Shown here: in pieces, positions 1 through 3,386 of the stretch
Layout: every line of letters begins with the position of its first letter
Numbering within the stretch: position 1 is the first letter of the stretch
Sequence record: PP430345
Strand: one strand, 5' to 3'
From: Escherichia phage vB_EcoM-LTH01
DNA: 64,000 bases
Program-made: the position numbers and the translations under genes
The notes under the pieces: generated by a model
Told to the model about the DNA's origin: nothing
Databases searched by the model: none
The model's input: only the letters and a program-made list of their open reading frames with translations

Positions 1-224
1 GCTCGCCTAAAATTTACCGAAAAATATTTTTAAAATGTTGTTGCTTTCGAATCAAAAACGGTGCTATTATATATTCATGGTGATGAGGACGGTTTCACGA
101 GGCAATCACCACCCCTGCCCGCTATTTTGCAAATGAGAATAATTCTCACCCCCCTGAAAAATTTCTTATCAAAGACCTTGACAAGCCTTATATTTTTGTG
201 CATATAAAAAATTTTTCAATTTTG

Positions 225-700
225 AAATGAAACTGAAATTTGAAAAACCCCTCAAGTATCTGGCCTGTAGCTCAAGTTCTCAATTTAAAATGCAAACTCA
301 AAAATGAAAAACCTCTCAAGTTCCTAATCTCTGTATCGAAAAACCTCTCAAGTTCTCGTGCACAGCTTTCAGGTTACGATCTGAAAAATGAAAAACCCCT
401 CAAGTTCTCAAATTATTTTGGTCACTGGTGTTGTATGTTTGCTTTGTATCATAGGTATACTGGAACAGTAACGTATTGAATCTGGATGGTGAGTCTGTAA
501 GAGGGGCATCAACTAAGTTGATCTAGTGGTGCAGGTATGCAGGAATGACACAGTATGGATGGGGCACGGTGGCAGGAGTCTTAAATTTATCTCAAATAGA
601 ATTTCAAATTGAAATCTGAAAATCCCCCATGAAACAAATATCACAGGGAAATATCTCAAATAGATTTTGGATCTGAAATCTGAATTTGTTTCAGCGAGCA
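225..700. repeat. Repeat-rich non-coding region: four copies of GAAAAACC(C/T)CTCAAGT (241-260, 306-324, 338-357, 390-410) and two copies of ATCTCAAATAGA...ATCTGAA (589-624, 653-688); candidate origin, packaging or regulator-binding array
   Basis: Direct repeats read in the sequence; no convincing ORF; lies beyond the 3' end of the minus-strand block. Confidence 0.6.
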
Positions 701-704
701 AATA

Positions 705-1523
705 TCACTCGTTAAAGAGTGTGTACAGGTCGAACGAAACATCCCCATTCACAGCTTTGAATAGTTGGATCTCTTCTTCTGTTGGGGAAAGCCAGTCTTC
801 AAAGAAAGTTTTAAAGTCCTCCTCTTTAAATGACTTACCCATTTTACTATCCCCTGTTGCGAAACGGATATAGTTTACTAGTTTAAATTTCTGATCTCTT
901 TCTTTACCAAAGAGGATGCTCTCTTTTGTCCAGTTGTTATGGACCATCAAGGAACCATCACAAAAGATATTTAACGTAACTGAAGTATCTTTCTTACCTA
1001 CCCGATTGATGTAACGAGTAAGGGAATCTTTCTCATACTCCCAGACAAAAGCCAGACTACCGAATGCTTTTTTGGATTTAAGATAGGCTAAAGGAAACTG
1101 ATCTACACAGGTATGATCAGCCCTTACAAAACCAGGGTCCATGCTGTCAGTAGCGTCAGCTATTTGGCTGAGTAAGGTTATTGCCTTGTCATCATTTATC
1201 GGGTCTTTTGATGAAGGATCAAAAGCTTCATCAAGAATACGCGATACCTTAGTGCGGTACTCATGAAACTTCGTGATTAGCGCCTCTGACTTTTCAATAT
1301 ATTCTTGAACAGAATCATCAGTATCAAGTTCACGGATCAAGTCTTTCAATCCGTGCACAGCACTTTCAATCTCCTCATTCTCTAGATCTCTTAAAGTGTA
1401 CTCTGCATTCCTGATCATTGTTTTATGATCAAGTGGAGTAGGTGATTGCAAACCATGAGGATTGGTAATATTCATCGGGACAACTTCATAAATGATTAGT
1501 GGGTCAAATTTACGGTAGGCCAT
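705..1523 (-). CDS. hypothetical protein (272 aa)
   Basis: Long ORF in the minus-strand block; no recognisable motif. Confidence 0.65.
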   Translation of the reverse strand: MAYRKFDPLIIYEVVPMNITNPHGLQSPTPLDHKTMIRNAEYTLRDLENEEIESAVHGLKDLIRELDTDDSVQEYIEKSEALITKFHEYRTKVSRILDEAFDPSSKDPINDDKAITLLSQIADATDSMDPGFVRADHTCVDQFPLAYLKSKKAFGSLAFVWEYEKDSLTRYINRVGKKDTSVTLNIFCDGSLMVHNNWTKESILFGKERDQKFKLVNYIRFATGDSKMGKSFKEEDFKTFFEDWLSPTEEEIQLFKAVNGDVSFDLYTLFNE

Positions 1524-1628
1524 GTAAGCTCCTGTATGCGTTTGTGAAGACCTTTTATGCTTGGCAAGGTCATTTATCGTCTTGTGTTTGTTTATGCTTA
1601 CAGGGGCCTGTTTAGGCCCCTTCTTTTG

Positions 1629-1856
1629 TTACTGTCTAATCTCAATAAGGGAAAGCTCGTGTTTTGGAGTGGGGCTGTAGCCTTCCCCATCATCATTGCC
1701 CCAAAATTCGAGAACATTCTTTAAGTTCATCTCTCCCATATCCCCTTCGTACCATTCAAAACCATAAAACTCTTCTGTCTCTAAATTCTCGACAAACAGC
1801 ACAGTCTTTAATTTCAGGTCACGATAGAATCGAAAGTTCTTTGGAAGCTTGTACAT
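1629..1856 (-). CDS. hypothetical protein (75 aa)
   Basis: ORF abutting its neighbours in the same operon. Confidence 0.5.
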   Translation of the reverse strand: MYKLPKNFRFYRDLKLKTVLFVENLETEEFYGFEWYEGDMGEMNLKNVLEFWGNDDGEGYSPTPKHELSLIEIRQ

Positions 1857-2170
1857 TACATCACCTCCAGGTCATTGTCATCACAGTATTTAAGAATCCA
1901 GGCCAATGCCGCATTGAATTCTTGTTCGTGATCAGTGTCCGCAGTTAATGTAAAAACTAACCACATGTCTTTGTTCGTTTCTACCCGAACGTAGTCGGTA
2001 AAACCCTGCTTCATAATTTTACGTAGGAAGTCTTCTTCCGTCAAGGGGTAGTTTACAGAAGTATCAATACCCTCTTCGGTCATACGCTCAAGACTAATGT
2101 CTGCAACGATATTTTTACGTACACTGAAAGTCTTGTCAATAACTACTTGCGTTCTTTCATCGATAATCAT
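1856..2170 (-). CDS. hypothetical protein (104 aa)
   Basis: ORF whose stop overlaps the next start. Confidence 0.55.
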   Translation of the reverse strand: MIIDERTQVVIDKTFSVRKNIVADISLERMTEEGIDTSVNYPLTEEDFLRKIMKQGFTDYVRVETNKDMWLVFTLTADTDHEQEFNAALAWILKYCDDNDLEVM

Positions 2171-2173
2171 CTT

Positions 2174-2794
2174 TTATTCTCCTTTAACCAGTTTAGTAAG
2201 CTGTGCAATGAATTGATCCAGATTGTCCTCTGTGACTTCCGCATCCTTAACTCTGACTGTGCGCTTAATGTTCACTTCAAAAACATCCGTATCTACAACT
2301 TCCTGTTCTTTTTCTACAGGTGCAGGAGTGTAATTATCAAACTTAGCCAATGCTTTCTTTAAGCTATCTTCCTGCAAGGTGAAGTATTTTTCCAAATTAC
2401 TTTGCTTAAGCATAACATAATCGTCAGGATTATCGGAGTTATACAGTCGCCACATATTTGGATGACTTGTTTTGATCTTGTAGTCACCCCATTTATCCCC
2501 CAGCAGATACTGATCATCAATAGCCACTTCACCCCTTGGGATCGCTAGGTTAACGATGTATTCTGCCGACTCCGCTGACCATTGAGGGAAGAATGTGAAA
2601 TACTCTTCGATATCTCTGGATGTTAAGAACTGACCCTCAATACGTGGACCCACCGGACGTAAGTAAGAATCGTTATTCTCAGAAGGTCGAACAATGAATC
2701 GATCACCATGATTTTCAATCATACGTCGGTTAGATGGGTCCATTGAAATAAAATAACTTTTCTTACTTTCTTTCAGTTTTGCATATATAGCCAT
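2174..2794 (-). CDS. hypothetical protein (206 aa)
   Basis: ORF in operon context. Confidence 0.6.
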   Translation of the reverse strand: MAIYAKLKESKKSYFISMDPSNRRMIENHGDRFIVRPSENNDSYLRPVGPRIEGQFLTSRDIEEYFTFFPQWSAESAEYIVNLAIPRGEVAIDDQYLLGDKWGDYKIKTSHPNMWRLYNSDNPDDYVMLKQSNLEKYFTLQEDSLKKALAKFDNYTPAPVEKEQEVVDTDVFEVNIKRTVRVKDAEVTEDNLDQFIAQLTKLVKGE

Positions 2795-2864
2795 TTCTTT
2801 CTCCTCTTTGTTTTGATAACTGAAGTTTAGCTCAAGGGGTGACTCTCGTCAACCCCTTTTGTGA

Positions 2865-3386
2865 TTAATTTGGCTTTATAACTTTACGAACAACATCCAA
2901 AATCTCACTTTGATGCGTATATTCAGTATTGATTTTTGTGGGCCAGTCCAGATACCAAGGTTCTTCTAACTCCCTCAGGGGTTGAAGCGCAAAAGGAACC
3001 CCATGAAGGATGTGATCACGGTCAGGGGCAAACGTCTCCGTATAATCCCAAGCCCATCTCGCCTGCCCTTTAGTTATTGAATCGGCCCGGCGTTGCTTCA
3101 AGATCATCTTCTTAATGAAAACAGGATCTTCATCCTTATCTTCAATAAATTTAGGCGCTCGACCCATACATCCGATAAGGTAGTCATTATCTACACGTTG
3201 GATGAAGGACTCTACACTACCTCCCATTGCATTCCATTGGCCTACCCAAGACTTGCCACTTGAGGTGACTATAAGCTTACCTCTGCCATTCTCGTAGTTC
3301 TCAATGATAACCTCGATAGGGTCGAGCCTTTCTTCCTGGAGTTCTTCTATTCGAACCTTTTTAACTAAGCTTTCTGTGACTTTCAT
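2865..3386 (-). CDS. hypothetical protein (173 aa)
   Basis: ORF in operon context. Confidence 0.6.
   Translation of the reverse strand: MKVTESLVKKVRIEELQEERLDPIEVIIENYENGRGKLIVTSSGKSWVGQWNAMGGSVESFIQRVDNDYLIGCMGRAPKFIEDKDEDPVFIKKMILKQRRADSITKGQARWAWDYTETFAPDRDHILHGVPFALQPLRELEEPWYLDWPTKINTEYTHQSEILDVVRKVIKPN

Follow-up and report, generated by a model that had tools for sequence, protein, structure and literature searches.

What does a cluster of short direct repeats do in about 480 bp of DNA that hold no convincing gene? The question is raised by Escherichia phage vB_EcoM-LTH01 (record PP430345), of which a stretch of 64,000 nucleotides, here called the window, was analysed. The cluster occupies positions 225-710 of the window, at the end of a leftward gene block. 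In a preliminary description, made without database searches, it had been taken for an iteron-like array marking a replication origin, a packaging site or a group of regulator-binding sites. The general idea proved sound, and the feature is real. As judged from the comparison of related genomes, the repeats are non-coding and under purifying selection, and the array is one section, genus-specific in sequence, of a conserved non-coding module that extends over about 800 bp. The module is probably a replication origin or a regulator-binding site; the packaging reading is largely excluded.

Positions 1-1600 of the window share 95-96% identity with the Escherichia phages A7_1, A5-4, UPEC06, W70 and A73. 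These phages have been described as genus Septuagintavirus in a publication that reports nothing on termini, origins or the intergenic region holding the repeats (PMC11370258). By similarity, the source of the window belongs to Septuagintavirus and is an rV5-like E. coli phage of the Vequintavirinae. For comparison across genera, the corresponding gaps were read in CR3 and KaOmega (Certrevirus), PVP-SE1 (Seunavirus) and Av-05 (Avunavirus). Further syntenic gaps were read in Kashira (unclassified Vequintavirinae), Gotham (Vequintavirus), and BME3 and Schickermooser (both Stephanstirmvirinae).

The four copies of the 16-mer GAAAAACCYCTCAAGT named in the preliminary description were all recovered as exact matches on the plus strand (Table 1). 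When up to three mismatches were allowed, the window contained seven matches, compared to a mean of 1.78 in 100 dinucleotide shuffles, which never yielded seven. The three additional matches have three mismatches each and lie kilobases from the array. No further exact copy exists in the rest of the 64 kb, nor in the 34 kb of A7_1 that were compared. A repeat search lengthened the unit to 27 nucleotides (nt), and the first two copies further to 48 nt. The spacings of the four units are 64, 32 and 52 bp, which correspond to approximately six, three and five helical turns. The second pair of repeats, ATCTCAAATAGA...ATCTGAA, was likewise confirmed and is in fact a 57-nt direct repeat, the two copies of which are 74% identical; the decamer CAAATATCAC, also noted twice beforehand, is exact at 635 and 699 and ends each copy. 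When CAAATATCAC is searched as a bare 10-mer with one mismatch allowed, the window shows no enrichment (10 matches versus 5.6 expected). The array is bracketed by two of the eight least stable 40-mers: those at 201-240 and 581-620 rank seventh and eighth among the approximately 6400 of the 64 kb.

Neither of the two open reading frames (ORFs) in the region behaves like a gene, in agreement with the earlier statement that no convincing ORF is present. ORF 240-479 would encode 79 residues, starts with TTG and lacks a ribosome-binding site. Among the six Septuagintavirus genomes compared, its variable sites are distributed as 9:8:10 over the three codon positions, compared to 4:7:48 in the real gene at 705-1523, and UPEC06 carries an in-frame stop. 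Both this ORF and the minus-strand ORF 513-701 lack matches in Pfam and PHROG. Coding function had been named as a finding that would overturn the preliminary description; the substitutions in ORF 240-479 showed no codon-position bias, and neither database yielded a homologue. The same six genomes, which are 96% alike and therefore permit a coarse test only, were used to assess selection. The fraction of variable columns is 0.063 in the 16-mer cores, 0.057 in the right-hand cluster (588-710) and 0.084 in the whole array (233-410), versus 0.164 in the spacer (411-587) and 0.17-0.24 at third codon positions of the flanking genes. The repeats thus vary two to three times less than synonymous sites. 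This lower variability indicates that the repeats have been kept by selection and the spacer has not.

The conserved unit is larger than the array. In blastn searches against distant phages, two islands of similarity were found, which are unannotated DNA in nearly all records: positions 62-166 match Seunavirus (75% identity in PVP-SE1 and SSE121), with the part at 98-148 also matching phi92-like phages (84-86%), and positions 589-683 match Certrevirus (73-76%). In the syntenic gaps of Vequintavirinae and Stephanstirmvirinae, the order of parts is constant over about 780-960 bp. The first part, present in most lineages, is a small rightward gene of family phrog_19316, the function of which is unassigned. 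It is followed by a near-consensus sigma-70 promoter, P1 (part 2), an element of about 95 nt with a central covarying hairpin (part 3), and a promoter-like sequence, P2, with a short conserved hairpin block (part 4). Part 5 consists of one to six 19-bp palindromes AATGAGAATnATTCTCATT with a spacing of 29 bp, part 6 is the promoter-like P3, and part 7 comprises the three or four direct repeats. A GC-richer spacer (part 8) leads to an AT-rich cluster (part 9), which has two to four terminal AAATATCA(C) motifs and lies beside the stop codon of a convergent gene. The window begins inside part 3; the gene, P1 and most of the RNA-like element therefore lie outside it. The module was found in eight lineages, namely Septuagintavirus, Certrevirus, Seunavirus, Avunavirus, Vequintavirus, Kashira, Justusliebigvirus and Phapecoctavirus. 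A 246-nt query covering parts 2-5 matched at least 354 phage records of rV5-like and phi92-like phages. The record PQ002170.1 (L003/L007) is filed under Demerecviridae, yet its region matches PVP-SE1-like phages.

A search of related genomes for the repeat unit, which had been proposed as a check, revealed that the arrangement is shared across genera and that the sequence is genus-specific. The repeat reads GAAAAACCYCTCAAGTTC in Septuagintavirus, GAAAAACCGATCGAGAAC or a near variant in Certrevirus, Seunavirus, Avunavirus, Kashira and Vequintavirus, and AAAAACTTTAAATAA in phi92-like and phAPEC8-like phages. Its core GAAAAAC is constant, and what varies between genera is the other half (GATCGAGAAC, YCTCAAGTTC or TTTAAATAA), as expected from co-evolution with a specific binding protein. 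Within each locus compared, the repeat cores are confined to the module. The spacing of the repeats in the relatives is 63-78 bp, and together the repeats span 132-148 bp in every lineage. A fixed architecture combined with a lineage-specific sequence is what co-evolving protein-binding sites would be expected to look like.

All promoters predicted in the relatives read into the module. In A7_1, P1 lies upstream of the DNA corresponding to window position 1 and has the sequence TTGACA-N17-CATAAT. It matches the consensus in 11 of 12 positions, as in BME3, and Av-05 matches in all 12; in PVP-SE1, three plus-strand promoters were called. P2 remains below the scan threshold in the window and is partly contained in the block 62-166 conserved in Seunavirus; at the same position of PVP-SE1, TTGATC-16-TATTAT with an upstream TG was called. 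For P3, the preliminary description had proposed a TTGACA-N17/18-TATAAA element at 177-206 that points into the array. A rightward candidate does exist there, but neither the spacing nor the strength held up. TTGACA is located at 178-183, TATAAA at 203-208 requires a 19-nt spacer, and a 17-nt spacer leads to CATATA. Instead of this pair, the consensus scan called the overlapping rightward TTATCA-N17-TATATT at 166-194. In PVP-SE1, the positional equivalent is TTGACA-18-GAAAAT with an upstream TG. It is plausible to regard P3 as a promoter pointing into the array, at a position that is conserved in the relatives.

The element of about 95 nt, which together with its promoter is located at L001 5886-6010 in A7_1, shows compensating hairpin changes between genera (ACCAG/CTGGT, GCCG/CGGC and ATAGC/GCTAT). 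Rfam gave nothing relevant at E ≤ 10 for window positions 1-3000 and nothing at E ≤ 1 for three related loci. On the opposite strand, the first hairpin and a T/C-rich tract scored as terminator-like, so that the element may act in both directions. The palindromes, which always lie in the interval between P2 and P3, match the E. coli Fur-box consensus GATAATGATAATCATTATC in 14-16 of 19 positions. The window contains a single one and the relatives up to five or six, spaced at 29 bp; arrays are found at L004 1990-2105, in BME3 (L063 11875-11990) and in Schickermooser (L067 3003-3111). These matches suggest iron-dependent control by host Fur. Among the papers searched, none connects Fur boxes with intergenic regions of phages. 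The terminal-repeat regions of Gotham and KPP-1 also contain, or are flanked by, similar palindromes, and none of at least 14/19 is found in the Gotham repeat itself.

Table 1. Features in and around the repeat array, in window coordinates.
Feature	Position	Strand	Basis or remark
3' tail of conserved structured RNA-like element (about 95 nt, P1 upstream)	1..15	+	A7_1 comparison
Putative promoter P2, TTGCTT-N18-TATTAT	41..70	+	read from sequence
Hairpin GGTGAT...ATCACC downstream of P2	79..110	+	conserved block
Fur-box-like 19-bp palindrome AATGAGAATAATTCTCA	129..150	.	14/19 to E. coli Fur consensus
Promoter-like P3, two overlapping candidates	166..208	+	consensus scan
AT-rich, easily melted tract between P3 and first repeat	191..240	.	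40-mer stability ranking
Repeat unit 1	233..259	+	core 242-257
Repeat unit 2	297..323	+	core 306-321
Repeat unit 3	329..355	+	core 338-353
Repeat unit 4	381..407	+	core 390-405
GC-richer spacer	408..587	.	evolves near neutral rate
Right-hand repeat copy 1 (ATCTCAAATAGA...ATCTGAA...CAAATATCAC)	588..644	+	start inside low-stability tract 581-620
Right-hand repeat copy 2	652..708	+	last bases overlap stop codon of neighbouring gene
Terminator-like hairpin at end of leftward 272-residue gene	706..721	-	stem overlaps end of second CAAATATCAC

Two genes adjoin the module. On the right, the leftward gene encodes a protein of 272 residues, for which tblastn matches were restricted to five close relatives; its exact look-up matched no contig. 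The hairpin at 706-721 overlaps the stop codon of this gene. The last three bases of the second CAAATATCAC copy (706-708) fall within the stem of the hairpin and the others within its tail. On the left, just outside the window, the phrog_19316 gene (80 residues, plus strand, L001 5641-5883 in A7_1) is the only rightward gene nearby. It is 75% identical between the subfamilies, is present in 149 records and has no match in Pfam.

Taken as a whole, the module is best read, tentatively and at somewhat less than even confidence, as a replication origin that is activated by transcription and carries sites for a binding protein specific to the phage. We infer that protein is bound, that the promoters are active and that the module functions as an origin. 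The four direct repeats would be the binding sites of a sequence-specific, most likely phage-encoded protein. Host RNA polymerase would fire from the sigma-70-type P1, P2 and P3 rightward into non-coding DNA, and the transcript would traverse the easily melted AT-rich tract and subsequently the repeat array. The bound protein and transcription would jointly open the duplex, and a replisome of the phage T7 type could then be loaded as at the T7 primary origin or at T4 oriF/oriG. The second AT-rich repeat cluster (588-708) would form the far edge of the module. This reading is based on the exactness of the repeats, which are far beyond chance and unique in the genome sequence compared, on their helical phasing and their span of 132-148 bp, on the unstable 40-mers that bracket them, and on promoters that read inward. 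For phages of the rV5 type, which possess a gp4-type primase-helicase and a family A polymerase, an origin has yet to be defined (PMC3606486). In the literature searched, no account of iterons or of an origin in the rV5-like group came up.

Several observations weigh against an origin. The sign of the GC skew stays the same across the module, both flanks of which are transcribed in the same way; the absence of a skew switch has also been reported for rV5 (PMC3606486). In the nine module versions scanned, DnaA boxes are near expectation and sites for integration host factor (IHF) are absent. The flanking proteins have no informative match in Pfam or PHROG by which an initiator gene beside the array could be recognised, and Certrevirus retains the repeats but not the small gene to the left of the module. 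The repeats are 32-78 bp apart, compared to approximately 22 bp in classical iterons. Finally, P3 is a weak match to the consensus in the window. The density of GATC sites gave no origin signal in the window either.

Ranked second, and nearly as likely as an origin, is a purely regulatory array. In this possible but less favoured case, the repeats would be operators for a phage or host regulator and would have no role in replication. This regulator would govern non-coding transcription to the right as well as the border where the terminal block, made up of small early genes, gives way to the following leftward block. The position of the module exactly between two leftward gene blocks is consistent with such a function, as are its three promoters, the one to six Fur-box-like palindromes between P2 and P3, and the leftward terminator-like hairpins, which are found inside the module in three genera and at 706-721 here. 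The lack of a skew or DnaA sign of an origin points in the same direction. However, the repeats are located downstream of the promoters and not over them, and they are at least 600 bp away from the first early gene. Moreover, simple operators do not need a conserved span of about 140 bp that is flanked by easily melted DNA.

A function at the RNA level is unlikely. The repeats would then act as RNA motifs, as a protein sponge or as antisense to the convergent leftward genes. Every promoter faces non-coding DNA, the product of P1 contains a covarying hairpin, and the repeats are always oriented with transcription; some units of Seunavirus and Avunavirus even have short hairpins with compensating changes. 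The units, however, fold barely better than shuffled sequences (mean z of -0.77 on the plus strand and -0.46 on the minus strand). For the four units of the window, z is -0.9, +1.0, +1.1 and -0.1, and no Rfam family was matched.

The location of the module in the genome raises a further possibility, which we consider quite improbable, namely that it is a T5-like pause or stop of DNA entry that marks the end of a first-entering early-gene segment. By analogy, rV5-like and phi92-like phages might pause at this boundary after delivering the terminal 8-10% of the genome; in this improbable case, the signal would be independent of DnaA, unlike that of T5. The untranslated Repeat Region 3 of T5 is where the first-step transfer ends, at 7.9% (bioRxiv 10.1101/866236). 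Mapped termini are available for three relatives, in which the distance of the module from one end amounts to 8.0-9.6% of the genome length: in Gotham at 10.9-11.9 of 137 kb, in BME3 at 11.6-12.4 of 147 kb and in Schickermooser at 13.7-14.5 of 151 kb. The interval between the module and the end contains about 30-40 small genes of unassigned function. In A7_1, the distance is nearer 10-11%. The module lacks the paired DnaA boxes by which the T5 signal is defined, and the parallel to T5 is therefore an analogy of position only. Furthermore, the terminal repeat is about 0.3-0.5 kb and not 10 kb long, and two-step entry has never been reported for the rV5-like group. First-step or pausing DNA entry is known only from T5-like phages.

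Even less probable is that the 480 bp are a short direct terminal repeat and thus a packaging start or physical genome end. This reading was pursued first, due to the matching length, and was rejected on the basis of synteny with the three relatives with mapped termini. Terminal repeats have 458 bp in EdH4 and HdK5 (PMC6563267), 459 bp in Gotham (PMC7471380), 514 bp in KPP-1 (PMC9862379), 475 bp in Jab (PMC13538427), 342 bp in BME3 (PMC12210895) and 328 bp in Schickermooser; the length of the array resembles those of 458-514 bp. Fur-box-like palindromes and CAAATATCAC motifs are also found in or beside the terminal repeats of Gotham and KPP-1. However, a distance of 11-14 kb separates the homologous module from the mapped ends of Gotham, BME3 and Schickermooser. 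The records of Gotham and EdH4 begin at the terminal repeat, with the module of Gotham at 10.9-11.9 kb, BME3 has the annotated repeat at the ends of its record, and the module of Schickermooser is counted from the right end. Of the preliminary proposal, the non-coding, cis-acting array has thus survived, and the packaging site or genome end has not, the module being 10.9-13.7 kb inside mapped ends. The exclusion, which depends on synteny with these relatives, is strong but not absolute.

A better candidate for the terminus exists elsewhere. In KPP-1 and Gotham, the terminal repeat is part of a large non-coding region between convergent genes. A7_1 likewise has convergent genes separated by 1.9 kb of non-coding DNA (L065 8600-10520, i.e. 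88.6-90.5 kb), which is distinct from the array and about 15 kb away from it. This region has segments of 27-34 nt in common with the regions that hold the terminal repeats of KPP-1 and Gotham (E = 2e-6, 6e-5 and 0.006), whereas these segments have no match in the array module. The 1.9-kb region is likely the terminal-repeat site of Septuagintavirus. When the boundaries of the Gotham repeat were aligned locally with A7_1 and the window, the result was no better than with shuffled controls. A transposon study of the Vequintavirus Bas54 reported no insertions in a convergent intergenic region of about 2 kb and is silent on the array module (bioRxiv 10.1101/2025.11.20.689424). When the repeat was searched as an exact pattern in IMG/VR and in metagenome contigs, the only matches were single chance ones in unrelated contigs, which left no independent contig ends for the mapping of termini. 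Comparisons with plasmids and E. coli genomes revealed no similarity to the module.

Three side observations concern the 1.9-kb region and the public records. The 1.9-kb region has several repeat families of its own (AGTTGGA, GTGACTC, TGTGGA(C/A)A and CGATATTTG). The 'attL/attR' repeats of PQ002170 were considered as evidence for termini and rejected, as they are an 80-nt overlap at the ends of record PQ002170.1, probably an assembly overlap. At about 94.0-94.1 kb of A7_1 (L065 14037-14146), some 55 nt are duplicated in tandem within an unannotated, otherwise gene-like gap of 1.4 kb; this is probably also an assembly overlap left in the record.

That the array is part of a real gene, ORF 240-479, can practically be dismissed: the ORF is open in five of the six genomes and is listed as a hypothetical protein in the records of A7_1, A5-4, W70 and A73, but its start, flat substitution pattern, interruption in UPEC06 and lack of family matches argue against it, and homologous arrays elsewhere are non-coding or have ORFs on the opposite strand only. 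Small ORFs have been annotated across the module in A7_1 (A71_218), UPEC06 (QUL77383-86), PVP-SE1 (gp202/gp203) and Gotham (F10B_0202/F10B_0203). On one strand or the other, these ORFs overlap the repeats or promoters, and they probably do not represent genes.

Therapy and biocontrol work makes wide use of rV5-like and phi92-like phages, which still lack a defined origin or early control region. The module is present in at least 354 deposited genomes, mostly unannotated or hidden under doubtful small ORFs; its extent and parts are now delimited, and the annotation of several public records is corrected. Should the module prove to be an origin, it could be exploited for engineering and in phage-dependent plasmids; should its palindromes be bound by host Fur, the early events of these phages would be linked to iron supply.

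How does the module compare with known systems? With the terminal repeats of Vequintavirinae and T7-type packaging sites, it shares a similar length, Fur-box-like palindromes and AAATATCA; those repeats, however, were mapped in a different non-coding region, 11-15 kb away. Like Repeat Region 3 of T5, it is untranslated, rich in repeats, about 1 kb long and better conserved than neighbouring genes, and it follows a block of small early genes at about 8% of the genome from the end. Unlike the T5 region, it has neither paired DnaA boxes nor a long terminal repeat.

The likeness to iteron origins, such as lambda ori and those of the plasmids P1, F, pSC101 and R6K, consists of three to four repeats in the same orientation beside AT-rich DNA and of a repeat sequence that varies between related replicons. 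Two hallmarks of iterons are present, i.e. at least three direct repeats on the same strand and an adjacent AT-rich unwinding element. A regular two-turn spacing is not, although the spacings are near whole turns; with 32-78 bp, they differ from the approximately 22 bp of iterons. In addition, the module, the origin status of which is predicted, lacks a recognisable adjoining or overlapping initiator gene, DnaA boxes and IHF sites. The T7 primary origin and T4 oriF/oriG do not contain a repeat array and are served by T7's own RNA polymerase and by MotA-dependent middle promoters, respectively, whereas the putative promoters of the module resemble those of host sigma-70. With these origins, the module shares the feature expected of transcription-primed initiation: in a phage with a T7-type replisome, predicted promoters read into AT-rich non-coding DNA.

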